Assembly: GCA_030390025.1 (NCBI GenBank)
Contig: CM059453.1
Span: 7,192,001-7,256,000 of the forward strand
Length of the DNA stretch: 64,000 nt
Direction of reading: 5' to 3'
Origin: Squalus acanthias
Taxonomy: Eukaryota
In this document: piece by piece, positions 3,069-32,136 of the stretch
Position numbering within the stretch: the first letter of the stretch is position 1
Layout of the letters: the number at the start of each line of letters is the position of its first letter
Position numbers and translations under genes: made by a program
The notes under the pieces: model-generated
Seen by the model: only the letters and a program-made list of their open reading frames with translations
Told to the model about the DNA's origin: nothing
The model's database searches: none

Positions 3069-3124
3069 TTAAGACCCAAGCGCTGATATGCAATAATGAC
3101 TTTTGAATTCCTGCTGCTATTATA

Positions 3125-3420
3125 GGAAAAATGCAGCAACCAGTTAATTGGATGAATAGCAAATTAATCTGTTTTAGCTGGTGTTCATTGAGGGACAAAT
3201 GTTAGAAAGGGCACTGGGAAAACTCTCATCCGTCCCCTCAGTAGGACCATATGATCGTTTCCCTCCATAGGAGGAAACAAACGTGGCCTTGTTTAACATC
3301 TAATCGAAAGGACGGGTCTTCCGGCAATGCTGCACACCTTCAGTGTTGAAGTGAAGTATCAGCCCAGATTATAGGTTCAAATGCTGGGGCGAAGCCTGAA
3401 GCCAGAATCTTCTTACCCAA
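3125..3420 (-). mobile_element. Degraded Deu-domain SINE (copies ~44660-44950 and ~60116-60410)
   Basis: aggaaa..gcagc...ttgaggga.aaat...tttaacatctaatcgaaagg...gctgcacacc.tcagt, colinear with the 21900 element. Confidence 0.65.
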
Positions 3421-4046
3421 AGTTTTGGACCATGGAGACCACATCGGCAGCAAGATGCAATTCGGAAGTTGCAAATAAACTTGAGGAATGGCAACGATTA
3501 TCCCCTCTGGGGTCGCTGACATTTTGTGATCTTGTTGGGCATTTAGCAGATGAGACCTAATTGGTAGGGGGGTAAGATGACATTGGCAAGGCATTCTTAT
3601 ATTGAGAATTTGTTTTTTCAAGGAACGCCAAGGTGAGAAATACTCCCTAATTGGATTTAGTAGGTCACTACACGTAGAGTCTGTAGCTATGTTGCACTCT
3701 TAGTGACGTGAGGCGGTTAATCCTACCTTAATGGTCAACAAGTTTCTGATACACCAGTTTATCTGTTGGGTATTGCACGTTATGAGTCATTGCTGTTTGA
3801 AAGCACACCAAACATCCTTCAATTGTCAGCCCAGCTTGGCATCACTTACGTCAGCCTTTAGTGCGTACTGCACCCGACTGTAAATCACCAAATCATCGTG
3901 TGCTTCGGAGACACGTGCAGCTGCTCCGTGTTTCTTCCTGAATAGTAACAAATGCAAACGAGGCACTGCTCTTAATTAACTGGAATGTTTAATGAAAGCA
4001 CACTGCGCCTGCGCGATGAAGGACGTCAGTAGGTCAGGAAAGACTT

Positions 4047-5782
4047 AAGAACATAAGAAATAAGAAATAGGAGCAGGAGTAGGCCATACGGCCCCTCGAG
4101 ACTTTTCCGCCATTCAATAAGGTCATGGCTGAACTTCGACCGGAACTTCACTTTCCCGTCGGACCTCCATATCCCTTGATTCCATTGAGTCCAAAAATCT
4201 ATCTATCTCAGCCATGAATATACTCAAAGACTGAGCATCCACAACCCTCTGGGGCAGAGAATTTCAAAGATTCACAACCCTCTGAGCGAAGAATTTCCTC
4301 CTCATCTCGGTCTTAAATGGCTTACCCCTTATCCTGGGACTATGCCCCCTATTTCTAGACAAACCAGACGGGAGAAACAACCTGTCAGCGTCTAGCCTCT
4401 CAAACCCCTTCAGAATCTTGTATGTTTCAAAGAGATCAACTCTCATTCTTCTAAACTCCAGCGAGTATAGGTCCATTCTTCACAAGCTCTCATCATAGGA
4501 CAGCCCTCTCATCCCAGGAATCAACCTAGTGAACATTCGTTGCACCGCCTCCATGGCAAGTATATTCTTCCTTAGATAAGGAGAACAAAACTTTCCACAG
4601 TACTGCAGGTGTAGTCTCACCAAGGCCCTGTAGAATTTTAGCAAGACTTCCTTACTCTTATACTCCAACCCCCTTGCAATAAAGGCCAACATACCATTGC
4701 CTTCCTTATTGCTTGCTGTACCTGTATGCTAGCTTTCTGTGTTTCTTGAACGAGGACAGCCAAATCTCTCTGAATACCAACATTTGAAAGTTTCTCACCA
4801 TTTAAAAAATATTCTCTTTGCTATTCACCATACGAAAGTGAATAACATCATATTTCCCGACATTATTCTACATCTGCCACTTTACAGCCCACTCACTGTG
4901 GGCCAGAAATTCGGGTCTCCACGTGTGAGTAGGCGCTGTGTACTCACCCGTAGACCCAACGAAAGTGCCGGTTTCGCGCATGAACTGCACATGCGCTGGA
5001 AACCAGAACTTCCTTCCCTTGAAGGAAGGGGTTCGGAGGTCAAATGCGTGCGCCGGAGAGGCAGCGCGCACTGTAATTATTTTTTTCAAAAATTTAAATT
5101 TTTGTTTAAACTAGTTAATTTATGCAACTTATGGTTATTTTCAAAATGTTACTGTTTTCTTAAGTTATTTGAAGTTTTAGTTCGGATTTGGGGGGTGATC
5201 TCTGTTTATAGATTTGACAGGTCTTCCAGTCAAATCTATGAATGGAGATTCCCTGCTCCGATTGCCTTCCATGGCCCACGTGATCCCAGGGGACGGCTCG
5301 AACTTACTGCGCCCCTGGGATACGCAAGCACTGCACACCGCCACTGCAGGAGGCTCAGGACAGAAATCTCACGCGGGCCCACAGCACAACGGCAGGCGCG
5401 CAAGGTAAGTGAAGGTCGGGGGCTTGCACCCGCGGGAAGACTCCGACCCGAATTTATTTTCCATTTAGTCTATCTGTATCCCTTAGCAGAATCTTTGTGT
5501 TCTCCTCACAGTTTACTGTCCCACCTAGCTTTGTATCATCAACACAATTGGATACATTACACTCGATCCCTTCATCTAGATCAAAATATAGATTGTAAAT
5601 AGCTGAGGCCCCATTACTGATCATTGCGGCACCCTACTAATTGCAGCCTGCCAACCTGAAAAAGATCCGTTAATACCTACGATCTGTTTTCTGTCTGTTA
5701 ACCTATCCTATATCCATGCTACTATATTACCCCCAACCCCATGAGCCCTTATCTTATGTAATAACCTTTTATGTGGCACCTT
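4047..5782 (-). mobile_element. CR1 3' fragment interrupted by a MITE (copy at ~61038-62774)
   Basis: RT C-terminal ORFs 4264-4692 and 5708-5893; tail taagaacataagaaataagaaatagg. Confidence 0.9.
4900..5462. mobile_element. MITE inserted in the CR1 fragment (copy 61892-62454)
   Basis: TIR aaattcgggtc / gacccgaattt; CR1 sequence resumes colinearly on both sides. Confidence 0.85.
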
Positions 5783-6823
5783 ATGTCTTTTCCTTCTCCC
5801 GATTAGCACAGACCAGATCTGCAACCCAATTCTTTTCAATTTCCACCAGCCAACATTCAAAAGGGAACATTTTACTTTATCTATGATAGGCATTAATATA
5901 CGTTAATGATACGGTGCTGATTGCTCTAGGTGAAAGTTGAGTGTGATAAATAACGGTCAGTGCGAGGTTTATTGATAATTTCAACCTGGGTAAATAGCAG
6001 ATGCAAGTGTTTCAATGTGTAAACGCAGTCCTTTCTATTATTAGGTAGATCGCTTCAACACATTGGAGTTAGAAATTAGGAATACATAAATATTCATCAT
6101 CAATCTTTTTGCGATCATTGAATAGTTGATATTATTAAGCATGGAATTGCCTTCTTTAAATATATCATGGTACAAGAAGGGTTAAAATCTAGCACCACTC
6201 ACAAGAGTCTTCTGGCTCATGTTGCTGCGGTTGTTGCCGAAACATTGGCTGTTGAGGGGCGGCGCCTATCCGAGAAGCAACGTCATAGATTTGAATTGTA
6301 TACATCCTGTCCGATTGGTTGAAGGATAAATTTGATTGGCAGCAGATTGTAAACCTAACTGGGTGTTATTTGAAATCACTTGGAGCCGGTCACAATTCTG
6401 AAGGTAATTATCAGCCTGTCTATTAAAAGCAGCGAGTCTGTCTGGAGCTTTCAAAGAGAGTTGTCAGACCAAATAGCTCAAATCACTGGTAAGAATAAGC
6501 TAACACGTGCAATATAAATAACTGCTTATATCAAATTTTAGCAGATCAATCACACCCAATTATGAAATATAATGTTCGACTCCTTGAGCCAAACAAACTT
6601 AAGAACTACTGTAAACGTATGTGTCACGTTACTTTTACTATTTGCTTGTTGTTTTACTGTTTCCTGGACTAGCTTGATTGATAGAACTTCAGTGTCAATG
6701 TGGTGTAGTGTTATGCTGAGAGCCTGACATGGCAAGTAGGTTCGTGTGAGGCTGCCCATAAAACCACCAGCAGAAACAAACTGAAAGGGATTGTATGCCC
6801 ATTCTTTGAGCATGATGAATACT

Positions 6824-6899
6824 TTATCCAGATTGCACGGGAAGCGTAAACACTCCCTGGCACACAGAGCGCCAGCGATCAGAAGTCCAAAAATGTCCA
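6824..6899 (-). CDS. Siglec-like gene: probable terminal cytoplasmic exon (SGHFWTSDRWRSVCQGVFTLPVQSG*)
   Basis: Pyrimidine-rich acceptor ctgtttccttctgtttaaag; in phase 2 with the TM exon; TAA at 6826-6824. Candidate AATAAA on the minus strand at ~5968-5973. No transcript evidence. Confidence 0.55.
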
Positions 6900-9800
6900 C
6901 TTTAAACAGAAGGAAACAGACCCCAATAACATAACAGGAAGAATGTACAGACAGTCTGATTCAAACAGCCACTAATATTACTGTATATTTGATGCCGGGA
7001 GATGCGAACGACTGGGCAGGAATGATTGACCTTCCTACTTTACGCACCAGTTTAGGCTGATGCCCACTGTACTCACGGGAGTTTAATTTAAAGGAGATTT
7101 TGATATACGGACGTTCTGATGCAGGTTTCCTTTGAAACTTAATTCTATATAATTAATAATCACACCTACCTTTTTATCTTCAGCGTGAGGACGACTGCAA
7201 TTAGAGTAATAAGCCCGATGGTTCCACCTCCTATTATGAGGACGATTGTCCTGGACAATATTCCTAAAATGTTGGATAACATTGCTCTATATTAGGAATT
7301 TGGGATTAAACAACAATCTATCTTGGAAGCACATTTATGAGTGTGAGGAAGCAAGTTTCCTTTATGTTCGGATCACAAAGCTAATGGTAAATTATATTCT
7401 CCACTTGATTCAACCTGTTGATCCTTGCGTAAAAGCCTTTTGTTCCTGTGTTGCGGACTGGCGTCAATTTGAATTAATAAATTAAGATTCACTGATGTAA
7501 AAATCTCAATTTACAAATTGAGTTCACTCCACAACCCACCCTAGGAAAAACAGTGGGCTTAATCTGTTCGGAATACAGGGCCGCCAAGGTCAGCAGTTAC
7601 ATCGGTAAGATTTAAAATCTATAGCGATAATTCAATTTTGCTTAGGCTATTGAATATCGGCTCTACATACCCAAATGTGTCTGAACACGATAGAAATGAG
7701 CATTTAGCTACAAAAGGGTAGATTGCAGTTTGCTATCATGTATTGAGATAATTTTGGATTTTCTAAAGAATTTAACTTAATTCAGAATAATTTGTTTTCC
7801 AAGATCACTGGCTATTTCTGGTGATGAAATCATTTCAAATTTGCTTGAAAATATAAACCGAACAAGTTGCAGAAGAATGAAAGTTAAAATGGATAATGCC
7901 GACCGCACCTTTCAGTTGGTGATTGACAACTGATGAAAGTGGTCCTAACACTAATTCGAGATAGATTCCGTACGGACCTGCTGAGTGAAGCTGATATTTG
8001 CTGACACTTCGACCGTTCAGTTACTGACTTACCAGTGATGCACCAACTCCCTTATAGTATTAAATTACAGATAAATTAAACACGTACCCTTAGAGTGGAG
8101 CTGATATTTACTGACAGAATCACCGTGCTCGTTTGCTGCAACACATGAGATCAGGTTTCCGGTTCCGGTTGGGTGAGTCAATCTCAGAGAGCTCTCCATT
8201 AGCTGACTATTCACCGCCCAGGAGATGATTTCCACATCTGCGTTATTCCCAGTGAGGATTCTCCCATTGAGGCCCCACGTGATGTTTCCCGGGGGATTGG
8301 CTCTGATCCGGCAGCTACAGTTCGTCCAATTCTCAGAGCTGGTGCATGTCGGGCCTGCAAAAATTGTGGCTTTATCTAAAAGAAATAGAAACTTCAATAG
8401 TAAATGATCATGTAAATAGTTGCAGTACCGAAGTACAATTAATGCATGAGTTGAACTTACCATAATAGTTCTGGTAGATATATTTTAAGATGAAGCAACC
8501 TATGTTGCACCAGTTGATGGCGTATTATATGTTCACTTATAATAGGTGAGCTCGTCAGGAACAATTTCATATTAAACCTAATTGGTGTTCAGTCCAACCA
8601 GACCTGTCCTGACAGATATTGTGGGGGGTTCCTCAGACGGAGCAAGGTCAGAGTGTTATTTATCTATAATATACCCACAAACGTGATTCAACCGTCTCTG
8701 TTTTAACAGGTCAATTAATGTCAATTTCTTCACTTTGTGTACTGTTTTCAATATCTTCGTTTGTGGTGGACTGAAGTGATTCTTCAATAAATGTCCGGCT
8801 AACAAGGCGACAGTTCAAAGGACATTGTCTCTGAATATTACACTGTTAACACAACATTAATACAAATAACAGAAGTTGGCTTAACACCATTTTATCAGAA
8901 TTTTTTTGCAGAACATCTGCTCATCAAATTTCTGCATGTCAGTTCTAAGGATTGGAAAATTGCTTACTTCAGACGACGAGTATAATTTATTAACAATTAG
9001 ATGTTGAGTAAAGTTTCCAGAAAATGTGGCCCTGTCGTCACCTCATAAATATAAGACCTGCTGCATTTATGAGACATTGTGCCAGTTTCCACTCCTGTCA
9101 TACTGAGGGGGATGCCAGGGTAGTTTCCATTATTGGATCCATCGAGGTAGTGTGCCGCTATTTCCTCGGGAAGTGGTGAAACTTACCCAAACTCATGCAC
9201 ACGGTCGCCTTCCAGCAAGCAGGCAATTGAAAATTGGAATTTAATGCAGAATTCTTGAAATGAAAGGCTACTATCTAATTGAAGATTCATGCATACTTAC
9301 ATTGTACAGAAATCTGTGTGGAGCGGTTTGTGGTGCCCACAGCATTTTCAGCTATGCACCAATATTCACCGTCGTCCTCAGAACGAATGCTGGGGAATAT
9401 CTGCTTTAGTTCACCAGTGGATGATTTGCTCATCTCTTCACCATTTTTCACAAATCTTAAACTGACCAGGGGTTTCCCACAGGCCGTGCAGTATAATAAT
9501 AATGAACTTCCTTCCACAGCTACTATAGAGGAGTTGACGGTTGGGATTTCCAGTCCATCTGAAACAGGCGTTAATGCAAAACGTGATTGTCGAATAAGCA
9601 TAATTGAGTTCTTAATTAATTCATTATATAGGGTATGGGGATCGGGCAGGAAATTGGAGTTGTGTTCGATGATCAGACATGTTTGCCGGAGTGGCGGAGC
9701 AGGCTCGAATGGGCCGTATGGCGTACTCCTATTCCTAATTCTTAAGTTTTTATTAAGCCCAACCAGAGCTGAGATCTGGTGTCATAGCTTAAGATCCTAA

Positions 9801-12800
9801 CTCGGCATGGCCTTTGTTGCTTCCATTTATGACAGACTAAACTCAGAAGCTGACTGGAAATTCATAGAATAAAGATTAACAATCACATTAAAATATCTGT
9901 TGGAGGCACCATCATTGATTCATGGATATGAATGTTTCTAATGTAATCTGACTGATGAGCATTAGATGAGAGCCATTCCGAACATTTGATTATCGAAGTG
10001 AGCTCTCCTCGTACAGAGGCTGAGCTTTTCATGATGCATTCTTTGATGCAGTTCTAATCCCTAATAAATGATTGTGGTAAAAGTGCAAATTTGGAGCCGG
10101 TTGGCCGACAGGATAAATCTGTTTACTTTAGACCGGACATTTACCTTCAATCTCCAAGGTAAGATTTTGTGCTGAAGGAGTTGGGATACCATCAATTAGA
10201 ATTGTGCAACTCAGAATTTTCCCGTCATGAGCAGATGATGGTGTAAAGGTAATCACGGATGAAACTGTCCGAGAATCTGAACTTTCTTTGCTAATTTCTG
10301 CTCCATCTTGTTGATCCATTGGCGGAGGAAGGGACACATTGTAATTAATCCACTTCAGTGTCAGGTTGCCATCCGGGCAATTGTGGGTGACGGAACAGTT
10401 CAATCGTGCAGTTTGTCCAGCGATCAATTCCCCATAACCTGAAATATCTGGCATTTCTATAAAAACGGGAGAAAACCAGCTTGTTAGGTACATTTCAATG
10501 TTAAAACGGGCGATCGATGGCTTACTACTAAATCTGAGGAAGAATATCACATTTTGTTAATTTTTCTCTGCCACGTGTTGCAAGTGTGTTCACCATTCTT
10601 AATTAATCCTCGCAATTGTAATGCAGTTTTATGCCTCATCGGGTAACATATGGCCCCACTTAATTAAAAAATCAGTCGTTATATCTCCAAATTATTTGTA
10701 TCATGGATATTGTCCAGTGAACAAATTTTGCACGCTGGAATTAGAATTAACGTTAACTCCTGAAATGTCACGAATATTTTATCCTCTCGTATACCTCGTT
10801 CTGCACCAGCAATTGCCTATGTGATGGTGATTAATGCAGACCCAGAGCGATCTCGATTCTGTTGTCAAGAAACGTCAATATAGAACGACAATGCTGAAGA
10901 AATGTACATACCAGACAAAGGACGGGTAACACCACCTTGTGTGGGAGAAGCAGCGCAGGTTCCTCGCAGTAAATCTGAAGAAGGCTTCAGCAGAAATAGT
11001 ATTTGTAGCCGTGGGATTTGAATGAACAAATAAATTATAACTTGAACTGATTTTCACGTTACTGAAATATCTACTTTTTATTTAAGATCTAATTAAAAGC
11101 GGGGTAAATGAGCGCTGGATAGGGAAAGGCACGAACAAAGACTGCATTAATTCACCGCTTTTTAAGTACTCGCGACGTCAAAAGACGCTTCAACAAAAAG
11201 TAACTTGAAATGTAATCAAGCAGCCATTACCGACGGTAAACACAGGAGATTATTGGAGAAGATATGAAGATGTTTGGATTTAAGGATAAGGTAGAAATTG
11301 CAATAAAAACTGTTTAGAAGGGACGATGTAGCGAGTCGCCGTTTAGCGCAGTTGCTCAGAATAGTTCGATCCCAGTACGGTGTCCCACAGTGTTGTGCTG
11401 TGGAATTGCTTCTACTCACTGTGTGCATCAATAATTTGGAGAAAGCGCTAAAGAGTGTGATGTCAAAATTTCCCGGCCGGAATTAAGTGGATTCCATCAA
11501 AATGAAAAATGGGCGGGGTGTACAATGAGAGGCGCATCCAATATCGCCAGTTTGACACCCATGACAACCTTGCAAGTACAGCTCCCAGGTGATAACTGGA
11601 GAACTAAAGCGAGTTACAAACGGATACTGGAGATATAGTAGAATGGGGACATAAGAGGCAGATATAATTAAAGGTCTGAAAATAGGAGGTGGTAGATGAT
11701 CATTTGAACCGTAGGAAGCTGGGAGATGTGGAAGAGCAGAGGAATTTGGGGTCAGGTTCATAAGAGAGTGAAAGCAGCACCTCCAGTGGGAAAGTGTATG
11801 AAGTTGTTTCTGGAGCTCTGGGTTTGATGGCAAGAGATCAATAATATAAATTCGAGAATAGTGGAGATTCTAACGAGAACAGTAGTTAGTTCACAGTTGG
11901 AGTAAGAATGCGGGTATTGGGCTCCAGTCTGTAGGAAGGATTTAGGGCGGATTCGCGTAGTTTCTGGCTGGTATGAGGAAGTTTAAATAACAAGAAAATA
12001 TTTAAAAATTGGGCCAGATCTAATTAGTATAAAATTGATTTTGTGATGATTTGACAGAAGTGCTTAAACTTATTAAGCAACGGGACAGAGAAGATAGAAG
12101 GAGACTGAAGTAGAATTTGAAATGGCCGCCCTGGTCAAATCTCTCACTCCAGATAAGTCACCCATTCTAGCAGCCGCCCTAGTTTAATTGCCTTTCATTT
12201 CATTGGAAATAATGAGCTGCTGGTTTATGTATTGTAAGTAGGACCAAAAATCGTCAGTTTTAGTTTCAGTCAACAAGTACTAATCTATCCTCATGTGAAC
12301 ATTTTCAGAATAGGCTCGACTGGTATTTGAAGGGAATTGCAAAAAAGGGATATGGGAACTGAGCAGACACATGCGATTCGGAGTTTTGCTCATGTGAAGG
12401 ACAAACAGCCACACTGACAGTCTGTTCCGAACGGCCTGTTTTACTGCTGTAATTTCAATATACTTCTGTGTTTAGGATATCAGACGTCTCCGACCCTTAT
12501 CAGTATCCCTGCACCCTATGTTTCAACAACCCTTTGAGATCGGTCAGGGATATTTTAATATTTGCCCACTTTGCACATAGGTTGATTCATACTGAAGCAC
12601 TGGAGTGAAAATGTACAAAAGGAACAAAGGGAATACTCACCTAAAACAGAAAGAAATACGTCAGTACACAGAGTGCGACGTCTATTAGTGGACCAGGCCG
12701 AGGCGATCTCGATGCTGAGTTCGTATGTACCCTCATCACCCTTCCTGATATCCTTTAGCAGGAGGGTACACTGTTTCATTTCAATGTTACACTTGAACTC

Positions 12801-13700
12801 AGCTCTTCCACCATAGTTATTATGCTGCCTGTATGGATCTTTAGAATCATAGATAATGGAGAAACCTTGGTTACCAGGAGCATGTTCCCTCTTTAACCAC
12901 GTCATATCAGCGATTCTCCGATGGACTGGATAATCAAACGTACACCAGATCTCTGCACATGAACCGGCCACCGCCGACACAACTTTTGGCATCAGCACAG
13001 ATAATTCAGCACTAAAAACAACTGCGAAAAATTAATTAGACACCCTTTAATTAGCCATTCAAAATGCATTTCAGCAACTTTATCATCCATTAAAGTATTT
13101 GTTAATTGACAAATAATCGCTCATCACAAAAGCAATTAAAATATCATGTGAAGGCCTTTTCAAAATCAAGAAAAAATTCTAAATAAAATACAAACACAAC
13201 AACTATTGAAATGATCATAGGCGTACCTATTTGATGGGAGATTTATGAATCGGTAATATACATATTTAATACTCATCTAAAAAACGAATACATATCCACT
13301 AACAAGTAAGCGAACACCCAATAAAAATTCCCATTAAATATACATTAAAATATTGATCAAAATAAATATTAAACATCTATTGAATCTCCTTTGAATCACT
13401 CAATCAATATGAAGTAAGTTTTATTAAATGCGCTTTACAATAAAATATTCTGAAAATTCCTATATTTAAATATTATTTGAATAGGCTGTATACGCTGTAA
13501 CACAACAACAACGCACGCGTTCAGCAATCATGAAATTCCTATTTCACAAGTTCTGAAATCAATAACAAAAAAATCATTCATATTCTTTATTTTGCACTTC
13601 CTTTCCCACAAGATATAAATCACTTGCAGAAATTGTAAAAAAGCATCAGAAATGTACCTTCTGTCAACATTAAGAGAGGCAGCAGCACGGAACTCATCAT
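6824..13700 (-). CDS. Siglec/MAG (CD22/CD33-related)-like Ig-superfamily type I membrane protein, 7 coding exons, ~483 aa
   Basis: Exons 13700-13658, 13021-12641, 10456-10145, 9558-9301, 8375-8088, 7263-7170 and 6899-6824 have GT-AG boundaries, compatible phases (1,1,1,1,1,2) and sum to 1452 nt = 483 codons + stop. Siglec signatures: V-set GSCAEIWCTFDYP...WLK...GRAEF...KQCTLLLKDI...DEGTY, and domain-2 LNCSVTHNCP carrying the inter-domain Cys. Confidence 0.88.
7170..7263 (-). CDS. Siglec-like gene: transmembrane exon
   Basis: Acceptor acattttag, donor AG|GTAGGT, 94 nt. Encodes GILSRTIVLIIGGGTIGLITLIAVVLTLKIK (hydrophobic helix followed by basic stop-transfer residues). Confidence 0.88.
8088..8375 (-). 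CDS. Siglec-like gene: membrane-proximal Ig domain 4 exon
   Basis: Acceptor atttcttttag, donor G|GTACGT, 288 nt. CxxxxxxxxCxCxxxANPP...ISCVAANEHG resembles the membrane-proximal domain of MAG/Siglec-10/11. Confidence 0.9.
9301..9558 (-). CDS. Siglec-like gene: Ig domain 3 exon
   Basis: Acceptor cctgtttcag, donor T|GTAAGT, 258 nt. VEGSSLLLYC...EDDGEYWCIAENAVG. Confidence 0.93.
10145..10456 (-). CDS. Siglec-like gene: C2-set domain 2 exon
   Basis: Acceptor gtttttatag, donor G|GTAAAT, 312 nt. GELIAGQTARLNCSVTHNCP...W...SSVITFTPSSAHDGKILSC. Confidence 0.93.
11200..12100 (+). mobile_element. Highly degraded LINE (CR1-like) remnants in the Siglec-like intron
   Basis: RT-like remnants (ggtgtcccacag...ataatttgga...tgtcaaaattt); boundaries approximate. 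Confidence 0.45.
12641..13021 (-). CDS. Siglec-like gene: V-set Ig exon
   Basis: Acceptor tttttcgcag, donor G|GTGAGT, 381 nt open (ORF 12555..12998). Siglec V-set Cys pattern CxxIxC...C on strands B and E. Confidence 0.93.
13658..13700 (-). CDS. Siglec-like gene: signal peptide exon (MMSSVLLPLLMLTE)
   Basis: ttttacag|ccATGATG start context; hydrophobic leader; 43 nt ending at phase-1 donor GAAG|GTACAT. Same length and context as the paralog's leader at 16072-16114. Confidence 0.85.
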
Positions 13701-15106
13701 GGCTGTAAAATGCTGTCGATTTCACTCGCAAAATGAAGAACCCAATTCACAATTTACACCATTCAGATTTCAGCATTCTTCTTTCCAGTCACTTCTTGGA
13801 TTTCTTTGCTAATCAGCATCAGAATATCGGGGAAGTCCGATTCGGTTCCTACCGATCTGTGGGAACAGTGCTCACTCAATCAACTCCGTTGGTGAGGTAG
13901 GCAGCTAACACATCTTGTACATGGGCTGCGTGTGACCGACTGTTACAGAATATGATGTTATAGTATGTTTAAACGTTGCAAAAGAATACTTAATACAGAA
14001 ACAATATCTCTCTCTCTCGAACAAACACACACAAACACCAAATGTACTGTTATTTATGATATTGATATGTTGGCGCCTTTGTCAGAATGGCACCGCCCAC
14101 GCTTGCAGACGCCTCTGACTCACATTTCACACATATTCGCTTTCTGGCAGCTAATACGAGATGAATGTTGAACAGTTGTTGACTACAGTTAGTTAGCATG
14201 CTGCAGTCTATGGACGTGTGGTTTCGTCACCTTCTTGAAGGAGCGCTCCAACATGTATCTCTGACGTCCTAGATAGGAGCTGTTTGACAGTAGACCGTTT
14301 GACGCTGTGGTAAACAGCCTTTCTTCGAAATATTTAACTCTTTACATTCACACTCAAGCTCAGTAATTTTGCAGAACTTAAGACAAATGCCAACCTATTT
14401 GTTGCAGTGCTTTTATTAAGATTTAGTTATGAGGTCTGGGACGTGTGAAATGGACTTAAGGTTCCTGTCGTAAATACAAATATTGCTGTAACAGACACAG
14501 ATAAAATTGATTGAAGCAACATTTTCGGTCAAACAGATCAGTGTTGTCAATATCGGGAGACACTGTTTTTCTCATTGGCCACCCGGTGCGGAGGGAAAGT
14601 CGGAGGACCTCCCAGTGGGTCTGCTTCTGGGCCTGGAAAAGGTGGCCATTCACAGGTCCAGGCATCACCCGGTCCAGGGGATCATTTGGTCTGACTGCCT
14701 GCCTCCCACCACGTTCGTGTGTCCCTGGAGTGGGAGCATGCCGTGATTGCCTGTATGTTTTAATTCCAGATTTATTTAATTTACTGAATTAAAATACCCC
14801 CAGCTGACATGTTCTAGCGCGATCTTTTTAAAACTACCCCGAGCTCAGGGGAATTGCGCCGAAAAGTACCGCATTCGAGCGGATACTCCAGGCCCTTGTA
14901 TTTACATATTGCCATTCACAAACACAGTACATCCAAATACAGTGTTAAACCCAAACTGAGCCCCGATGTTGACCACACATCATTTCAACTTTCGGCATCA
15001 AAGCAAACTGGATCTTGTGTGGAGCTTCATTGAGCAGGGTGCATTGCACCAACCGCCACTCTGGGATTGACCAGACATTATGGGTTATTTTATTGTTAAA
15101 GCAAAG

Positions 15107-15231
15107 TGAGACCTGGGTCTGAACACACATCCCTGAACTAGTCAGTAAAGCCAAGCTGAGACCTGGGTCTGAACACACATCCCTAAACTAGTCAGTAAAG
15201 CCAAGCTGAGACCTGGGTCTGAAAACACATC
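15107..15231. repeat. 50-bp tandem repeat, 2.5 near-identical units
   Basis: tgagacctgggtctgaacacacatccctgaactagtcagtaaagccaagc starting at 15107, 15157 and 15207. Confidence 0.95.
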
Positions 15232-16480
15232 GCAGGGATTTGTTCCCGAAGATAAAAATAGCCACATTCTTTCCAGCAGCGCTGAGACTCGAATCTAAAA
15301 TCTCAAGTTATCACTTCACAGTTCTAGCACTAAATTCAGTAAATTCATAAACCTGTATTTGTAGCAACTCGGATCTCAATGAGTTAATTTCAGCAGATTT
15401 CAGCTCGCTGGACTGTTAATATAACCAGCTGAGGTCACTTATAAAAATGGCAGTTTACGCTCTTGAAACTGTTTTCTGAGAAACACTTGAACTTTTGACA
15501 TTTCAGATACGTGTTGTGCCCCCGAACAACTGAAGGTGATCAACCCACACGTCTGCAGACAACGGCTACAGGACAAACCACGGCTTTACACTTCAAACAC
15601 TCACAGTTCAAGGGCTGATAAATAGCTCAGTGTGTGGGAGTTGAGAGTCGAGGCGTCTAGAGTTGATGTAGAAGGCTATTTTATATATTGCAATATAAAG
15701 TGCCACTGCCTGTCCTATAACTGTGCAGATGATGAGGGGGCTGGTTGTATCGCCGATCAGGTTTCTTTTGCAGTAGGTGAGCCTCATATATCCTGCAACA
15801 GCGGGCCACACACTGATGTAAACTGTTATATTTGAGGAGTCCCAGATTCCCAGCAGTTTGGATCACCAACATTTGAGGAGTGGCGAAAGCTGTGTGAGCA
15901 ACCACGGTTCCCAATGATTGGTGGGTGGCGAACAGCTGACCTCCTAATACTGTGATTCGATTCATTACGAACTCCAATATATTACTGTCGAACCGAACAC
16001 AGAAACTAAATCACTTATATCAGAGATAAAAACAATTTATGCCATTTTGATATCGTCCACCGCCTCTAGTCATGAAGAGTATTACATTTATTTCCATTCT
16101 GCTATTTAGCGCAGGTAAAATATTCATTTTTAATATTGTATGTCAGAAAGAATAACAATGTTTTAGACATAGCATACGGTTAGTCAATGATTTGTGCATT
16201 CACACAGTGGGTATTTAATGTATATTTTATTCGGAACTTTATTATGTATTATATAGGATTGATTTGATAATTACGCTATGACTTATTGGCTTGCAATTGA
16301 TTATTTAATAGAATTTAATGAGTTTTAGAGAAAATTGCACGAATTTCATTAGATGTACGAATGAATATGTTAGTGGGTGTTTAAATGTTAAATTAATAGT
16401 ATTTAACTTGACGGTCAGGGTATGTTTATGTTGCTATATTATTGCGGATTTCAATGGGTGTATAATTTCTATTTTTTCAC

Positions 16481-16864
16481 CATTTGTCCATAATTCACGA
16501 TGGTCTGTGAAGGTGCCGTGGAAGGTGTCGGCGGTGAACAGGTCATGTGCAGAGATCCCGTGCACATTTGATTATCCCCCCTATGGCCTCAGTCCACTGG
16601 GTATGTGGTTAAAGTGGGATCCTGATCCTGTAACCTCAGGGGTCTCGATTATCTATGATTCCCGGGATTCAGAAAACGTGCCCTTGAAATATAGCGGTCG
16701 AGCTGAGTTCACCGGCGAATTTATAAAGAAACAATGTTCCTTACGGTTAAAGGACATCAGCAAGCTCGATCAAGTTGCTTATTATTTCTTGTTGAAGATC
16801 ATCACCGCCCAGAATAATATAGAAAGATATTCTTCCGGATCTAAGGTCACTCTTTCTATTTTAT
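16481..16864 (+). pseudogene. Open V-set exon of the pseudogene
   Basis: 384 nt with no stop (within ORF 16318..16926). SCAEIPCTFDYP...WLK...GRAEF...KQCSLRLKDI; donor T|GTAAGT. Confidence 0.9.
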
Positions 16865-17016
16865 GTAAGTATTTGAATTGTTCCTTTATAGTTTATCTAC
16901 CATCTCCTCAGTGTCATTTAATTTGAGCTTAAATGTAAAGATTTCTTAATACTCATGGCCCAAGTTACAGGCTACAGCGGCAGGGCTGGTACACTGCATG
17001 ATACCCATGATTTTGT

Positions 17017-18610
17017 TATAGAATAGAATCATAGAATCATAGAATCTTACAGCACAGAAGGAGGCCATTCGGCCCACCACGCCTGTGCCGGCTCTGTGAA
17101 AGAGCTATACAATTTAGTACCACACCCTATGATTTTCCACAGAAATTGTAGATCAGCCTTGTTTTAGAACAGCTCTAATTGCTTTAAAAAAATTCCCATT
17201 GAATCGTATTCCACCAGCCTTTCAGGTGGTGCATTCTAAATCTTAGCAACCCTCTGGGTGAAGAAATTTCACCCCATTTCCACACAAGTTCTTATGCCAA
17301 TTGGTTTAAATGTGAGACCTTTGGATACCAACCCAAATGCCAGAGGAAATGTTTTCTCCTTATTTATTCTATCAAAAACCCTCAATTTTGAATAGCACTT
17401 TCAGTTTTCTCGTTATCCTTGTCTGCTATAAGGACAACAAGCACAGCTTCTCCAATCTCTCCACGTAACTGCACGTCCTCATCCCTGGTATTATCTTGGC
17501 AAACGGCTTCAGTACCTCCTCCAGGACCTTGACCTCCTTCCTCAAGTGTAATTCCGAGAATTGTACCCAAAACTCCAGCTGAGGCAAAACCAGAGATTTG
17601 TGAAACTTGAGCATGACTTCCTTGTTATTGTTTTCAATGCCCCTATGTAAAAAGAACCGTAGTGTCCTATGTGCTTTCTTTTTAAACGCCTGGTAAATTT
17701 AACTGACATCTTCAAATAAATGTCAATATGTACCCCATGTCCCTCTGTTCTTGCAGCCTCCCTCAAAATGGGATTATTTAGAGTATGATGCCTCTCCATA
17801 TATTTCTCCCAAACTGCATTTGTGCTTCACACTTATCCGCAGTAAATTGCATCTGCCATGTGCCTGCCCATTTTAACAGTCTGTAGATGTACTCCCGAAG
17901 TCTGCTACAATCATGCTCACTATTTAATACGTTGCCAAGTTTTGTATCACCCGCAAACTTCGAAACGTTACTCCCAATACGCAAGTCTAGGTCATTTATA
18001 TAGAAAAAGAATAGCAATGATCCTAATATCGACCCCCTGGGGGATCCCACATCGGACTTCGCTCCTGTCAGAAATGCAGCCGTTCTCCACGACTCTCTGC
18101 CTCCTATCCCTTAGCCACTTTCCTAATCACGTTGCCACCATCCCTTAAATACACTGTTCTTCTATATTCCGAATAGTCTGTTATGAGTTACTTCATCCAA
18201 TGCCTTTTGAACGTCCACATATACAACATCTACTGTACTACCTTCATCAACCCTCTCTATTACTTCATCAATAAATCAATCGGGATAGACAGTCACGATT
18301 TGCATTTAACAAAGCCCTGCTGGCTTCCCTAATAAACCCATGCATCTCCAAGTGAGAATTAATCTCGTCCTTCACAGTGTACTTATTTAGCTTTCCCACC
18401 ATTGTCGTTTGACTGATTCAGCTGTAGTTCCCAGGATCCTCCGTCTCCACTTTTTTGAACAGCGGTGTAACAGTTGAAATCCTCTAGTCTTCTGGTACCA
18501 CTCCAATATCCATGGAGGATTGAGAGATTGTGGTCAGAGATTCTTCTATATCCATCCTCGCTTCTTCAGCAACCTCGGATGAATCCCATCTGGACCAGTT
18601 GACTTGTTAT
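17017..18610 (-). mobile_element. Older degraded CR1 in the pseudogene intron
   Basis: Tail (atagaatc)n at 17017-17047; RT remnants GSILGSLLFFFYINDL...SKFAGDTKLG. Confidence 0.85.
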
Positions 18611-18829
18611 GTTTTCACCTGAACAGATATTCAGCACTGCCATTCTTACACACTTACATAAATTGGCTGTAATGTTCAGTTAGAAAGAGAAACACTTAAG
18701 GTTGTTTTCAGATGTACAGACTGGCGGGTCAAAATTCAATCCTTCGTGGATTCTGGACAAAAATTTCAAGGTTTGTACTTCTGAGGGGGAATAAGTGGAC
18801 AAGACTTAAGGATAGGAGGGATATCTCAA

Positions 18830-19075
18830 CAATGCAATAGTGACCAGATGATCTGTTTTAGGTGCTGGTTGATGCAAAATATGAACCAGGACACGGGACA
18901 TTTGAAATAATACATTGGGATATTTTACATCCACCTGTGAGGGAAGACGGGTCATCGGTTTAACGTCTCATTCATCAGATGTCATCTCCAGCATTGTAGC
19001 ATTGCATCAGTACTGCAATGGAGTGTCAGGCTACAGCTTGTGATTTAGTCTCTGAATTGGGGCTTGAAACCCTAA
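18830..19075 (-). mobile_element. Degraded Deu-domain SINE
   Basis: ttttacatccacctgtgaggg...tttaacgtctcat...cagtactgcaatggagtgtcag. Confidence 0.7.
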
Positions 19076-21899
19076 CCGGGTCTTGCTTTCTTCTGATATC
19101 TTTGCACTTTCCCGCTGTTGTTAGTGGGAACAAACGAGGATAGTTAACCTTTTCCTCTCCCTGAAGACCATCTGCAGCGCTCCTATCACGACGTTAAATG
19201 AGGTCAAATTAATTATAAGCAAGAGTTGAATTCACCCCTGTCCCACAAATGGTAAATTAAGCGTTTCACGTGACACTGAGCAATTATTCTAAGAGTATCC
19301 TAGATTCTATCCCAAATGCAGATATGGAACATAATCTTGGACCCAGTTTTCTATGTTATGTCAAACCTAATGTTGAGTTGAAGCACTTGTGTTCAATAGA
19401 GTGGTGACTGAACTATAAGAAACAGGCCAGCAATGAATAATTCATGTGATATAGTGGGTGATAATTCGGTTCAGGAACACATATATCAATCGATTGATTC
19501 CGTAACCGTTAAGTAATAACTGACAATAGGCTCCTTCCCCTGTACAATAGAGTCATAACGGCACAGAAGGAGGTCATTCGGCCCATCGAGTACTTGTCCG
19601 TCACCAGAGAACAATGGAAAAAAACAATAATTTTTATTCAAGATATTATCTGATACGTTGGGCTGAATCGCCTTGACTTTCACTCCATAATTTTATTATT
19701 TTGAAAGCCACTGTAACGTGAATTTCTTTCTCTCCTTACAGATAAGTCCTGGATATTAGTCTCTGGGGAACTGATTGCTGGACAACCAGCACATTTGACC
19801 TGCTCATTCACCACCAGTTGCCGTCCGCCAAACCTGAACTGATGTGGATTCAGGACGAGAATAAACGTCCTTCACTGCAAGAGAGTAACACTTCAAGACA
19901 CAGTGGAAAACTTTCGATGGTTCCTGGATGGTTTCATCAAGTTTCACCTTCACCCTATCAATGGACCACAAAGGGAAAAGGATGGGATATAAGCTTGCGG
20001 TTGATGTAATCGTGGGTGCCGTTCAAGAAACACTTAGACTGGACTGTAAGTAACTACTGTACGCTTCATTCTACCATCCTGTTTGTAAATATGATCCAAA
20101 CTTATCTTTATTCTCAGTGGAGTGATAGCTGGCCTGGAAAATTGAAAATTTCAAAACTGCGATGGATAGATTTTTTTTTAGTTAAGGGTATTAAGGGTTA
20201 CAATAAAGCAAAGGCGGTTAGACGGAGTTAAGATATGGATTAACCATGATCAAATTGATCAGTGGAACAGACTCGAAGTGCTGAATGGCCTATGATTCTA
20301 TAATCAATGAACCAAATTGACAATCTGAGATTTATTGTAATTTATATTTTTTAACATTGATACAGACCCGTGGAGTAATATTGGTCGCTCCGTGGTTGTC
20401 ATTTACGTCAAATATTATTCCAAAGGCTCCTAATTCCTGATATAGTTCCAGACAGAGAGTACCTGAAACAGAAGGGTCTGTGTCGAGTTGGCGGGGGCGC
20501 TGGTCCGGTTACTAAAATTGGCCGCAACAGCTCTGTTTAAGGGATGGGAAAGCCCACTGTTCTTGCTCTCGGAGGAATGGCCGCTTGATTGACTTATCGG
20601 TGGAGCAGAACCACGTCCAGGCAGTCATTACAACTCTTTGAAGAGAAGAGGAGGAAAGGTTAAGATAAAGCATGGATCTAAATAAGATTGTCGGTGGAAC
20701 ATCAACAATCTCAAGCTGGCTTTTCAATTTACAGTTGACAATATAACCACCATATCTGCTTTAATATTCTTCGTTGGTTGTCAACCGGATTGTTATTTAA
20801 ACCTCTGCTCCGTCATTTTCCTATAACACCAATGATCTTGCGTGTTTCAGATGCACTGTGGAAACCCAGCCTCAATTCCTCTATAGTAACAGTGGAAGGA
20901 AGTTCATTATTATTATACTGAACGGCCCTGGGGAACCCGACGGTCAGTTTAACATTGCTCCGAGAAGGGACACAGATCAGCAGTTGAACTAAAGCAGAAA
21001 TTTCACAGCATTAGTTCTGATGATGAGGGGGAGTACTGTTGCGTGGCTGAAAATACCCTGGGCACCGCAAACAGCTCCAATCAGATTTCTGTACAATGTA
21101 AGTGTTATGTGAACTTATTTAATTTATAAAGGGACATTAATGGTCGGTCTCAAATGTTGTTTGGTACCGCTCCTCTGAACGTTCGCGGCGCTATCTAAAT
21201 CGGTCGGCTAAGTGATGAGGAGGGGCCAATACTCTTGGCGCGCCGGTACTGGGGCCAGCGGAACCCCAAGATTTCCTTTTCGAGCAGAAGGAGCTGAATA
21301 GGACAATTAGAATGGTGGCAGTGATGAAATAAAGCGGGTTATTCTGGAATATTAAGCGCAGTCTCACCCGGTTCAGTAGCTCCACATCTAACGCACTACT
21401 TTCTGTTACAGAGACAAGACAAATATAGAAACAGTGATGTGAGTGGGGCTCCATCAAACCAGTCAGCTCAAAGTGAAGAGGTCCTGTATGCAGCTGTCAG
21501 TGTTTCAAACGTTCGACAGCAGGAGCGATATCTCCAGCAAGAGGATTCCAGTGAATAAGCCGCAATTAAAAGCAAATGAAAATCAGCGGCATTCACACTA
21601 TTCTGACAGATGGAACTGGTCAATATCTTCACACAATTGTTTTTTATGATATCGAACAGAAACTCGCACTCCGGGAAGTGCTGTGATAATGGAGATCACT
21701 CGGAGAGTAATAGCTAATATTTTAACATCTCTTTGTGAGACGATTTGATTTACAATCCCAAAGATTGTCCACTCCAAACATACTTCCGAAACGTTGCAGG
21801 AAGGGGGCGTGAATGTTCAATGTAATTTTAAACTTTTTTATCTGCTTTAATAATAAAATAACTATTTCCCAGTTCGAACTTTTATTTAATTTCGGAACA

Positions 21900-22400
21900 A
21901 AAAGAACAGAAAGACTTGCATTTCTATAGCGCCATTTAGGACGTCACAATGTGCTTTACAGCCAATGAAGTACTTTTGAAATGTGGTCACTATTGTAATT
22001 TAGGAAACGTGGCAGCGAATTTGCGCACAGCAAGCTCCCAAAAACAGCAATTTGATAATGACCAGATCATCTGTTTTTGTCATGTTGATTGAGGGATAAA
22101 TATTGTTGCATGACACCAGGGCTAATTCCCCTGCTCTTCGTCGAAATAGTGGCAATGGGTTTTCTTACGTCCACCTGTGAGGGCAGACGGGGCCTTGCTT
22201 TAACGTCTCATCCGAAAGACGGCACCTCCGACAGTGCAGCACTCCCTCAGTACTGCCACGCCGACAGTGCAGCGCTCCCTCAGAACTGCCCCTCCCAAGG
22301 TGCAGCGCTCCCTCAGTACTACCCCTCCGACAGTGCAGCGCTCCCTCAGTACTGCACTGGAGTGTCGGTCTAGATTATTGTGATCATGTTTCTGGAGGGG
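21900..22400 (-). mobile_element. Deu-domain SINE (SacSINE1/AmnSINE1-like) with an internal 33-bp tandem expansion
   Basis: Deu core tttaacgtctcatccgaaagacggcacctccgacagtgcagcactccctcagtactgc; about four tandem ccgacagtgcagcgctccctcagtactgc units at 22226-22356. Confidence 0.85.
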
Positions 22401-23774
22401 TCCCCTCCTTATTATGTTGTTAAATAGCCCTGTAGGATACCGTTGACTCTCTCTGTCGGTTGTGGGGTTAGATTTTCACACTCTCCCAGCCCAGTGTAAT
22501 AAACCTTCACCTTCCTGTCAAATTCCATCAGTTTCCTTCACTACAGCAGCTAAACTTTCTATTTATTTTGATTCCATCGGTATTCTTCTGAAAGGTTGGA
22601 ATTATAAAGAGGCGTGTCTGCGAGTAATTCAACTTGAGCTTCATGATTAGAATATTTTTCGACACGCTACCTTGACATACGATGGCAAAGAATGTATTTC
22701 ATTCTCATCCATGGCCGCACTGAGTTTGATTCGACTGAGTGGCTTTCACCAGCTACAAGCAAGTGCAGAGATTCCAACTCTGTGTTCAAACGGCAAGCAG
22801 ATAATATGCATGAAGTGAAGCAAAGAGTCACCTTGGTAAATCGCAAACCTTTACTATAATTCAACCTAATACACACAGGATGTATTGCTAATATGAACAG
22901 GCATTCCAACAGGAACTTTACAAGCTTCACTACGTTTTCCGGTTAAGATTCCACTCAGCTAGCTGAAGCTTCCTGTGCTTTCTCTGCAAAGTGGTTGAAA
23001 TGGCCTTTGGCGCTGTTCCTTCCATCGTCAGGATGTGCGCAAAGCGAACAGATCACAGCACACGCCATCTAACGGACAAAGGAAGCAAGTGCATCACATC
23101 AAGCAGAGCACATTCTCCAGCCACATCTGCTTCGGTCAACGCACCTGTACATACGTAAACAGTCTATGTTGGGGAGGGTGAGGTAAACTAGCAGTTTGTC
23201 TGCGCAAGATGCGGGATTTCTGCCCCTGTTGGACTCAGATGTGTCTGATGATACAGTGACAGATCGCCTATGTAATGCTGTCGGCCTACCACTGTGTGGC
23301 GCTGTTGGCTTGCGAAGCCTTCATTCACACAGAACATGGAACAAGCAAAAGCCCGGGCAGCAGGAGGAATCAGAGCAATTACAACAAACTGCAATTTAAA
23401 TTGCGATTGTAGAATGTCCAACAGTCTGAAAAACCAAGAACCAGTACAGCAATTAGTCTGTCCGCTGTCTAGCTCAACTGGGCTAGTGACTTAAAGTTCA
23501 GTCAGGGCTCCCGCTCCTGTTAAAAATCCCGCCGATAATCGCTTTGAATCTTGCAATCTTAGATCTGATTATTTGAGAGCTACCGGCGGGAATCACATTT
23601 CAACAAGATGTTCAGAAGGGGGCATCATTGGAAAATTGGCCGTGGAAAAATGCAGGGACATTTTCAAAATAACTCTCGGCGGTGAGTGTCGCTGGCAAAT
23701 CCGGCATTTATTGCACATCCCTAGTTTCCCTTGGGAAGTGGGTGCTGAGGCGCCTTCTTGAACAGGTTCAATAT

Positions 23775-24160
23775 TTTTGTTTATTCATTCACGGAATGTG
23801 GGCGTCGCTGTCAAGGCCAGCATTTATTGCCTATCCCTAATTGCACTTAACTGTGTGGCTTAGTCCGCCATTTCAGAGGGCAGTTAAGAGTTAACGACAT
23901 TGCTGTGGTTCGGGAGTCACATGTAGTCCAGACCTGGTAAGGACGGCAGATTTCCTTCCCTGAAGGACACTTGGGAACCAATTGGGTTTTTCCGACAACC
24001 GGTAGTTTCATGGTCAGCATTACTGTTACTAGCTTTCTATTCCAGAATTATTTAATGAACTGAATTTAAATTCCCCGGCTGCCGTGGTGGATTTGAACTC
24101 ATGTCTCCGGATCATTAGTCCAGGCCTCTGGTTTACTACTGCAGTAACACAACCGCTATG
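23775..24160 (-). mobile_element. tRNA-derived SINE with a LINE-like 3' tail
   Basis: B-box GAGTTCAAATCC on the minus strand near 24090-24101; tail tttattcattcacggaatgtgggcgtcgctg...gcatttattgcctatccctaattgc; a second tail fragment at ~23680-23763. Confidence 0.7.
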
Positions 24161-24704
24161 CGGACCTGCAAATTGCCCTAAAAATGTTTACGAATCATCC
24201 TTACAGTGAAAGCGATTTAATAATTCGGTTGGCTCTCCTGTTTAATAGTCTATTAGTACATAGAATAATATAGTTGGAAGTAGCTCAGAGTGATTCAATA
24301 ACAAGCATTAGTCAACACAAAGGAAGTAGCTTCTAATTCTTTGTGTTCACAGGCCGCAACATGGGTCTGCACTGCACCGATTGGTCACAAACTTCCATCA
24401 GTGTACAGCGTGTTTAACATGTCTAATCCGATGAGAAGGCTGTGAAGTTTCCGTCAGAGTTCCCTTACATTGTGTCGATCGCTTGGACACTCGGTAATGT
24501 AACATCTTTCAGACCAGAGTGCAAGGTTTTCCGTTCCTCCCCTTTCCTTCGTTCGCGGACGCCTCCTCCTTATGTAATAAATCAGCTCTCGGTTACCCGG
24601 GGTTTGGCAGTGAGTTGCATCGCACAATTGCTCTCAATGGCTTTAACCGATGCAGTTGAGCAATGCAATTCCGAAAGTAATCAAGTCGCTCGTAAAAACC
24701 AAGA

Positions 24705-25075
24705 AAGAAACGTAGAGATTTAGGAGCTGAAGTAGGCGATTCGGCCCTTCGAGCCTGCTCCGCCATTTAATATGATCATGCCTGATCCTCTATCTCAATA
24801 CCATATTCCCGCTCTTTCCCCATGCCCCTTGACCTCTTTTGTGTCTGGAAATCTATCCATCTCCTTCTTAAATATATTCAGTGACTTGGCCTCCACAGCC
24901 TTCTGTGGCAGAGAATTCCACAGGTTCACTACCCTCTAAGTGAAGAAATTTCCCCTCATCTCAGTCCCAAATGTACTACCCCGTATCCTGAGACAATGAC
25001 CCCTCGGTCTAGAGCCCCCAGGCCAGGGGAAACCTCCTCCCTGCATCCAGTCTGTCTAGCCCTGTCAGAATTTTA
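24705..25075 (-). mobile_element. CR1 3'-end fragment
   Basis: CR1 3' UTR stem-loop region (gcccttcgagcctgctccgccatt) plus ORF2 terminus. Confidence 0.85.
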
Positions 25076-25533
25076 TCTTGGCTGAGGGAATCCAAATGGA
25101 CTCAGAGCCCTGGGTTAGAGAGGGGTATTTCTTCCATAGTATTTATCGATGTTCAGTGAACCCTGCTGCAAGTAGCCTTTTCGATATCCAGTGAGGACAG
25201 TAGCAGACTCCGACGTATTGGGCCGCAGGAGAAACATCATGGTGAAGCAATGCATCTGCAAAAAAGCAGCTTAAGCGAGAGATTGGAGAAATCGAACTCC
25301 AGCAAGCATTCAAGTTGGAAGTGGAGAATATGGGGGAAAATACTGCAAGCAAGAACAACGAGCGTTTCCAATGTCTTGATTGTAAAAACTTGTCGTATCT
25401 CTTCGTTGTAATAATTTGTTCGTTTAGACAAAGAAACTGAAATTTTGACATTCAGAGAAACGTCCTCTCTGAGTTCTGGTCCTTTTCAGGTAAATTTAAT
25501 AGCTGCATATTCGCAAGTCATTTTGCAACAGAA

Positions 25534-25770
25534 AGAACACGTGCTGCATATACAAGAGGACACGTGGTACAGATACCGAAATAACACGTGGTACAGATAG
25601 ACGAAGAACACGTGGTAGAGATACGACAAGAACACGTGGTACCGATCCAATAAGAACACGTGGTAGACATAAGCAAAGAACACGTGGTACAGATACACCA
25701 AGAACACGTGGTACGATACACCAAGAAAACGTGGTACCTATCCAAGAAGAACACGTGGTAGATATAGACA
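25534..25770. repeat. 24-bp minisatellite (agaaCACGTGgtacagatacacca), left part, ~10 units
   Basis: Direct tandem units, each with CACGTG. Confidence 0.95.
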
Positions 25771-25774
25771 AAAA

Positions 25775-30046: not shown

Positions 30047-30054
30047 AAAAAAGA

Positions 30055-31890: not shown

Positions 31891-32136
31891 CCCAAAACAA
31901 TATATCAGAATCCAATCGCGAAGTCATTGTTCGATATGTGATAATGTACACATAAGCCATTCGAACCTCCTCGTTAGATTTCAGCCTATGACCTATATTA
32001 AGTTGTGCTTTTCCCCATTTATAAACAGTGCAAACTGCTAGATTGAAATCCATTAGCCAATACTTTTGTCTGGTATGTGGTCTGCCTTCAACTCTTTTCG
32101 ATTTCACTGGAATACAAATTGGAGATAATCTTCAGG

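Follow-up and report, generated by a model that had tools for sequence, protein, structure and literature searches.

Gene A, an intact gene on the minus strand of a 64,000-nucleotide window of the Squalus acanthias genome (G000:C30:7192001-7256000, C30 being contig CM059453.1; positions below are window coordinates unless a contig is named), probably encodes an inhibitory leukocyte receptor, likely with a ligand other than sialic acid. It belongs to an elasmobranch cluster of genes that have either immunoreceptor tyrosine-based inhibitory motifs (ITIMs) or, in the likely activating members, a membrane arginine (Arg), and that exchange their V domains. A non-sialic ligand is suggested by the lack, in gene A, of the essential Arg of Siglecs. 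An earlier sequence-only reading had proposed here a Siglec-like gene and an inverted paralog, gene B, in a tandemly amplified head-to-head cassette.

Gene A encodes a four-Ig receptor with two ITIMs

Gene A has eight exons, seven introns that are all GT-AG, and an intact open reading frame of 540 aa. Its product comprises a signal peptide, a V domain, three C2-type domains, an uncharged transmembrane (TM) segment and a tail encoded by two cytoplasmic exons, with the ITIMs VIYSRV and IAYATV followed by a distal TCEYAAI motif. The sequence-only reading was right that an intact Siglec-like gene with four immunoglobulin (Ig) domains lies here, and mistaken about its 3′ end. The boundary that it set at 6824 falls in intron 6, between the TM exon (7263-7170) and the cytoplasmic exons (3937-3850 and 2107-1949); the gene extends down to 1949, and the two-ITIM tail, 3-5 kb past that boundary, had been overlooked, as had the absence of the essential Arg and the existence of ITIM-less counterparts with a membrane Arg. 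The exons, and the evidence for each, are as follows; the DNA analysed consisted of exon-bearing stretches of about 1.46 Mb including the window, with the V matches near 271 and 304 kb of C30 left out.

13658..13700, minus strand: exon 1, signal peptide (ATG, phase-1 GT donor)
12641..13021, minus strand: exon 2, Siglec-type V-set domain with C36, C41 and C99, and Ser117 (codon 12714-12716) at the essential-Arg site (sialoadhesin match)
10145..10456, minus strand: exon 3, C2 domain D2 with C162, C168 and C225 (splicing, homolog alignment)
9301..9558, minus strand: exon 4, C2 domain D3 (splicing)
8088..8375, minus strand: exon 5, membrane-proximal Ig domain (D4), which has four Cys as does MAG domain 5 (homolog P0004 compared with MAG)
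7170..7263, minus strand: exon 6, uncharged TM segment, 94 nt (conserved in the family)
3850..3937, minus strand: exon 7, cytoplasmic, ITIM VIYSRV (27 tblastn matches in the analysed DNA)
1949..2107, minus strand: exon 8, ITIM IAYATV, distal TCEYAAI motif and stop (splicing)

Neither a hydrophobic frame at about 6950-6880 nor a short-intron reading at 7130 was accepted as an exon, given that the family has intron 6 in common and conserves the 94-nt TM exon.

The family has a Siglec-type fold and is distinct from MAG and sialoadhesin

The best PDB sequence match of the gene A V exon is sialoadhesin (2e-12), followed by MAG, and the binding Arg of sialoadhesin stands opposite Ser117. With an AlphaFold model of the gene A V domain (pLDDT, the predicted local distance difference test, of 86), sialoadhesin also ranked first by fold (Z 16.8, root-mean-square deviation 1.7 over 111 residues), its Z being tied with those of CRIg/Vsig4 and MAG. 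The full ectodomain was compared through homolog P0004, for which MAG is the best match by both sequence (4.7e-52) and fold (3.7e-30). Siglecs are marked by a B-E intra-sheet Cys pair in the V domain and by a Cys pair linking V to D2. A 22-row homolog alignment with three MAGs shows conservation of the Siglec/MAG Cys positions; C36, C41, C99, C162 and C168 are invariant or nearly so, which matches the hallmark on positions alone. The layout, a type I membrane protein with a V-set domain at the N terminus and C2-set domains after it, is likewise that of Siglecs. In V, D2 and the membrane-proximal domain, the Cys pattern is shared with MAG (Siglec-4; PDB 5lf5) and sialoadhesin (1od7, 1qfo); unlike them, gene A has four Ig domains, lacks the essential Arg, falls in a separate clade and belongs to a multicopy family. 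Because gene A has the predicted Siglec architecture and lacks the essential Arg, we class it as Siglec-like and not as a Siglec.

A V+D2 tree was built from 53 rows, including three MAGs and sialoadhesin and no row named CD22, Siglec-15 or CD33-related. Gene A falls in a 15-row elasmobranch clade (support 100/100), apart from MAG and sialoadhesin, which each form their own group, so that one-to-one orthology of gene A with either, which could have undone the earlier proposal, is not seen. CD22 and Siglec-15 differ from gene A in domain count, tail and copy number. Named relatives, the names being given by similarity only, occur in at least eight shark genera and in rays and include XP_078093182.1 and XP_078093181.1. 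The sawshark protein P0001 belongs to the same family, with 52% V identity to gene A and the same tail motifs. The family is thus elasmobranch-wide and separate from MAG and sialoadhesin, broader than the lineage-specific one first claimed. Family matches to LSR, ETF and EPTP, used as probes for the synteny of the 19q13 CD33-related Siglecs, lie on other contigs, and a restricted search of the S. acanthias genome, with a stricter first look, found no clear MAG ortholog. A literature search that scarcely covered subscription journals found neither a paper on a shark Siglec cluster nor a functional study of the shark relatives; PMC8455134, seen in part, may list shark Siglec families in its Supplementary file 9.

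At least 88 loci on one contig

A genome search with the gene A V exon gave at least 135 matches, a lower bound as 150 of 196 candidates were scored; most lie at C30:6.0-8.03 Mb. They anchor at least 88 loci on C30, 81 in a main cluster of 2 Mb and seven at 0.18-0.33 Mb, far more than the two loci to which the proposal might have shrunk. The TM exon served to assign types. Ia and IIa genes have ITIM tails, Ib and IIb genes are ITIM-less with a membrane Arg, and B-type loci are pseudogenes; the 88 loci divide into 27 Ia, 11 Ib, 11 IIa, 10 IIb, 22 B-type and 7 others. V exons across the cluster range from 30 to 98% in aa identity. Together with the exon exchange described below, this upholds the idea that a cartilaginous fish has a large cluster of Siglec-fold receptors evolving by birth and death.

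Fifteen genes are fully intact (12 Ia, 1 Ib, 2 IIb and no IIa), and in 17 further genes the lesion is confined to D2 or D3. As both exons are symmetric, and models from other sharks lack D3 (P0001) or D2 (P0009), some of these genes may work through exon skipping.

Several loci deserve mention. At C30:178-341 kb, 5.7 Mb away from the main cluster, lies a smaller second copy of it that includes close relatives of gene A. Inside the main cluster, at C30:6126940-6144136 (L094, L095), is a lone five-Ig MAG-like gene, type III, whose tail is of the ITIM type and which has Ala at the Arg site; it groups with Carcharodon P0027, which has the Arg. At C30:6039750-6045400 (L088), a further TM type matches the short-tailed Heptranchias P0007. 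Two V-like matches at C3542:1151042 and 1172961 lie within open frames 1558 and 1083 aa long, odd for a family with one exon per domain, and are possibly retrocopies.

Two signalling ends on related ectodomains

Both ITIMs are present in 11 of the 12 full Ia genes, and the distal-exon ITIM in all 12. The membrane Arg is found in 11/11 Ib and 9/9 scored IIb genes, in 4/27 Ia and in 0/11 IIa. The Ib tails run out of frame ahead of the ITIM in all 11 genes; IIb tails end at a stop after about 28 aa. The ITIM-less Arg form arose twice, once per group. A corresponding IIa/IIb pair occurs in Mustelus: P0023, which has an ITIM, and P0024, which has the membrane Arg and a tail of 12 aa, group at 100/100 by V+D2. 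As in paired receptors, there are ITIM members with an uncharged TM, and ITIM-less members with a charged TM and a near-identical ectodomain.

In Ib and IIb the Arg sits toward the N-terminal side of the TM, a position also seen in FcR-gamma partners. The genome contains FcR-gamma-like and CD3-zeta-like TM exons with the acidic residue, so named by likeness and by Pfam PF11628. The TMs of FcR-gamma partners carry an NxxR motif, according to the available text of PMC2413239.

Ligand-binding exons are exchanged across classes

The V exons of the 21 ITIM-less genes are 88-99.5% identical to that of an ITIM gene and the classes are mixed in trees, while the TM regions, available for 20 of them, are only 62-79% identical. 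In Ib_6680337, for example, the V exon is 99.5% identical to an Ia V exon and the TM region 77%. In quick trees built exon by exon with approximately unbiased (AU) tests, a single clade of the 11 Ib genes was rejected for V (p 2.6e-95), D2 (4e-35) and D4 (0.007); a IIb clade was likewise rejected for V (p 1.5e-34), with similar results for D2 and D4. Overall, the ligand-binding exons are homogenised by exchange.

Gene A, too, is a mosaic assembled from three paralogs. When it is compared in bins of 500 bp, the closest copy is now the one 455 kb downstream, now the one 57 kb downstream, now the one 390 kb upstream; positions 501-3500 are 98.8-99.8% identical to the paralog 455 kb away, and 7501-10000 are 99.4-100% identical to the one 390 kb away.

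Constraint weakens toward the receptor tip. Pooled pairwise ratios of nonsynonymous to synonymous substitution (dN/dS) in group I, over all open exons, are 1.00 for V, 0.90 for D2, 0.44 for D3 and 0.55 for D4; for 13 full genes they are 0.83 (0.61-1.12), 0.77, 0.53 and 0.55, respectively.

The essential Arg is rare and absent from intact genes

The Arg column was read from 76 V rows, that is, 75 from S. acanthias and P0001, with 13 of the 88 loci omitted as frameshifted or partial. It holds Ile in 24 rows, Ser in 22, Lys in 10, Arg in 9, Leu in 5 and other residues in 6. Thus 9 of the 75 S. acanthias rows have the essential Arg, and none of the 15 fully intact genes does. The canonical YYFRV occurs in six of the Arg rows, in all of which D2 is broken or inverted; the remaining three are Ib genes, each with a broken D3. 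In group II, the codons at this site (AAA, AGA, ATA) are one step from Arg or encode it, and in other sharks the Arg is kept in 4/6 readable group II proteins and absent from 9/9 readable group I proteins. From these codons and counts, the Arg was likely lost early in group I, and within S. acanthias in most of group II.

The six YYFRV exons, at C30:7051014, 7739506, 7864807, 7914104, 7102219 and 7844931, have an additional Cys ahead of the C-strand Trp, and in two of them D2 is inverted in place. The gene A V domain has extra C92 and C133, seen in 19 and 5 of the 76 rows, and a new disulfide is possible. Other multicopy Siglec-like families keep the essential Arg (L152, L155, L160, L167 and L170, on C17, C3542, C3426 and C3486), and L150 and L154 on C17 have Tyr at this position.

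Gene B is a pseudogene from a different subgroup

Gene B faces gene A, the divergent ATGs at 13700 (minus) and 16072 (plus) being 2372 bp apart, as the proposed spacing of about 2.4 kb had it.

13701..16071, no strand: divergent intergenic region between A and B, with putative promoters (distance between ATGs)
16072..16114, plus strand: pseudogene B signal exon, group II type (sequence)
16484..16864, plus strand: pseudogene B V exon, with an open frame but no acceptor (CAG to CAT), 88% to a group IIa V and 61% to A
19742..20048, plus strand: pseudogene B D2, two 1-nt deletions, frameshifted with stops (sequence)
20851..21098, plus strand: pseudogene B D3, stop and deletions (sequence)
21412..21579, plus strand: pseudogene B tail exon, VLYAAV relic, stop at the distal Tyr (sequence)

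Pseudogene B has no D4, TM or first cytoplasmic exon ahead of its tail, and is a dead paralog derived from group II. Among the 22 B-type loci no V exon is open (19 are dead and 3 partial), and D4 and TM are absent from all; a role for B as a secreted decoy was rejected on the lack of an open V exon among these 22. In 21 of the 22 a group-I gene lies opposite, which makes 21 of the 38 group-I genes. The persistence of B is likely explained by unequal crossovers of 30-60 kb, which would copy A and B jointly.

A single tandem duplication underlies the 57-kb repeat

Positions 1-7008 recur at 57014-64000 with 96.6% identity and an offset of 56,991-56,992 across 2.0-7.0 kb. The repeat is a mosaic, so the downstream recurrence of the gene's 3′ end, described earlier as near-identical, holds over 3500-7000 (99-100%) and less so over 1-3000 (92-96%). 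Collinearity of the duplication extends from about -11.3 kb to 43.9 kb, the copy being displaced by 57.0-57.55 kb, with 87-94% identity over about 11 kb on the left and mostly 97-99.5% at 4-42 kb. It is a single tandem duplication of about 55 kb.

1..43886, plus strand: duplication unit 1, part within the window (whole about -11.3 to 43.9 kb; collinear copy 57.0-57.55 kb downstream)
45750..64000, plus strand: start of duplication unit 2, continuing to about 101.4 kb (collinearity)
58944..60928, minus strand: next gene A copy, intact, last two exons 60841-60928 and 58944-59111, the others past the end of the window (ATG window-equivalent 70687)
42729..42896, minus strand: orphan ITIM tail exon (sequence)

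The downstream copy differs from gene A by 0-3 nt per exon and by 15 in the tail exon. A search of 42897-57000 for other family exons found none. Two additional occurrences of the A/B cassette, 95-97% identical, lie upstream at distances of about 390 and 430 kb, and a block of about 740-960 kb repeats at 97-99.7%. The 57-kb tandem unit of the sequence-only reading is thus real as a duplication and not as a regular unit, as the 13 listed spacings between neighbouring cassettes run from 32 to 59 kb.

The window also contains decayed LINE-like copies (26382-37153 and 49017-55953; longest frame 642 aa at 34555-36483), so classed from composition and repeats, and minisatellites of 24/72 bp and 69 bp (25560-25771, 30055-30397 and 31201-31892), the array near 31.2-31.9 kb differing in length in the downstream copy.

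Discussion

Our analysis points to gene A as an inhibitory member of a paired cluster. By analogy with Siglec biology, ligand binding would lead to ITIM phosphorylation and recruitment of SHP-1/2, and the membrane-Arg forms would signal through an adaptor with an immunoreceptor tyrosine-based activation motif, most likely FcR-gamma. V exchange would keep both forms directed at the same, probably microbial, ligands.

Several results weigh against this reading. Intact genes of the activating type number only three (1/11 Ib and 2/10 IIb), and no IIa gene is intact (0/11). Four of the 27 ITIM-bearing Ia genes also have the membrane Arg; the Ib and IIb TMs have the Arg without the Asn of NxxR; and the Arg in Ib counts as one event, not 11. 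The placement of the Ib TM with its flanks on one side of a branch (support 100) is partly circular because types were assigned from the TM exon. The V+D2 tree does not resolve groups I, II and III as one clade. dN/dS is not demonstrated to exceed 1, the V interval spanning 1, as does that of the V loops (1.22, 0.89-1.76, in the 13 full genes), which were picked after seeing site variability. The repeated block of 740-960 kb could be a second haplotype that inflates the counts. Finally, in three runs guessed to be RNA, no spliced gene A transcript was found; two contigs lie within the D2 exon (89% and 92%) and a third matches the V exon as far as the acceptor, beyond which 36 letters remain, each a weak hint of a paralog and not of gene A.

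The main rival is an inhibitory-only family, in which the ITIM-less copies with membrane Arg are decaying or serve as non-signalling decoys and V sharing results from neutral unequal crossing-over in a tandem array. The lesions or unclear state of 18/21 Ib and IIb loci speak for it, as do the missing Asn, the Arg in some Ia genes and the dN/dS intervals. We nevertheless hold it to be unlikely: the IIb design of membrane Arg and short tail recurs in Mustelus P0024, and the IIb TM in Cetorhinus P0073; Ib arose separately, with its Arg at the same TM depth and its own tail frameshift in 11/11; and exchange declines from V to TM, as the accessible text of PMC4042635 describes for Siglec-5/14. That the expansion, the 57-kb pair included, is largely uncollapsed haplotype or mis-assembly seems improbable. 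Long stretches of the 57-kb copies show 98-99.5% identity and the block of about 800 kb repeats at 97-99.7%, as such an artefact would have it, but the left part of the unit is much more divergent, the A/B cassette occurs in four places at 95-98%, V exons differ widely, and dozens of loci would remain even if the count were halved.

The sequence-only reading had cast A and B as a mutually converting pair like SIGLEC11/16, amplified as a regular 57-kb unit, and the head-to-head layout at more than half of the group-I genes and the real duplication lent it colour. We regard it as highly improbable. A and B share 61% nt identity in V, 58% in the signal exon and upstream, and 77% in their best common piece, far under the 97-99% reported for the 5′ region of the SIGLEC11/16 partners in the part of PMC5701461 available, and are therefore not such a pair; moreover, B derives from group II, the B-type loci have no open V, D4 or TM, and the spacings are irregular. 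Hardly more credible is a set of MAG-like adhesion molecules of nerve or epithelium, not leukocyte receptors. MAG is the best structural match for the ectodomain, the available text of PMC7226832 reports an ITIM on fish MAG, and the restricted search of the genome gave no clear MAG ortholog; yet group I forms a fully supported clade apart from the three MAGs, and high copy number, turnover and V-biased divergence suit immune receptors.

The paired cluster that we favour resembles primate Siglec-5/14 and Siglec-11/16, as far as they are described in the accessible parts of PMC4042635, PMC5701461 and PMC6288428. Both have V and C2 ectodomains, an ITIM form set against an ITIM-less form with a charged TM, and exchange that is strongest in the first two domains; the pattern in gene A fits the description of Siglec-5/14 (PMC4042635; PMC6288428). 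Loss of the Arg is also known, from ape Siglec-5 and human Siglec-XII (same sources). The shark cluster differs in its roughly 80 loci, in many-to-many exchange, in two separate ITIM-less origins, in the absence of the Arg from 15/15 full genes and in a head-to-head partner that is dead and unconverted. Its membrane Arg, moreover, lies near the N-terminal TM end, whereas Siglec-14 is described as using DAP12. In cluster size, the two TM classes and the N-terminal position of the activating-TM Arg it resembles the FcR-gamma-coupled LILR/PIR and Xenopus XFL families (PMC2413239, consulted in part, where XFL has at least 75 genes); it differs from these in its Siglec-type ectodomain and in the missing NxxR Asn, and its adaptor coupling is putative. 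The available text of a teleost study describes fish genomes as having no inhibitory CD33-related Siglecs (PMC7226832).

A bolder view, which we offer only tentatively, is that sharks made the Siglec scaffold into a largely sialic-acid-independent paired system on the scale of LILR/KIR, with about 80 loci, shuffled V domains, activating forms arisen twice with an FcR-gamma-type Arg, a stalk tuned by loss of D2 or D3, and an essential Arg toggled by single base changes.

A Siglec-fold cluster with ITIM and ITIM-less members in sharks suggests that the paired design either dates back to the origin of jawed vertebrates or has re-arisen in sharks. The 'counter-trap' idea, and the question of what Arg-less Siglecs bind, could be approached with the test pairs that the cluster offers, namely V domains nearly identical in sequence but set on opposite tails, and natural versions with and without the Arg.

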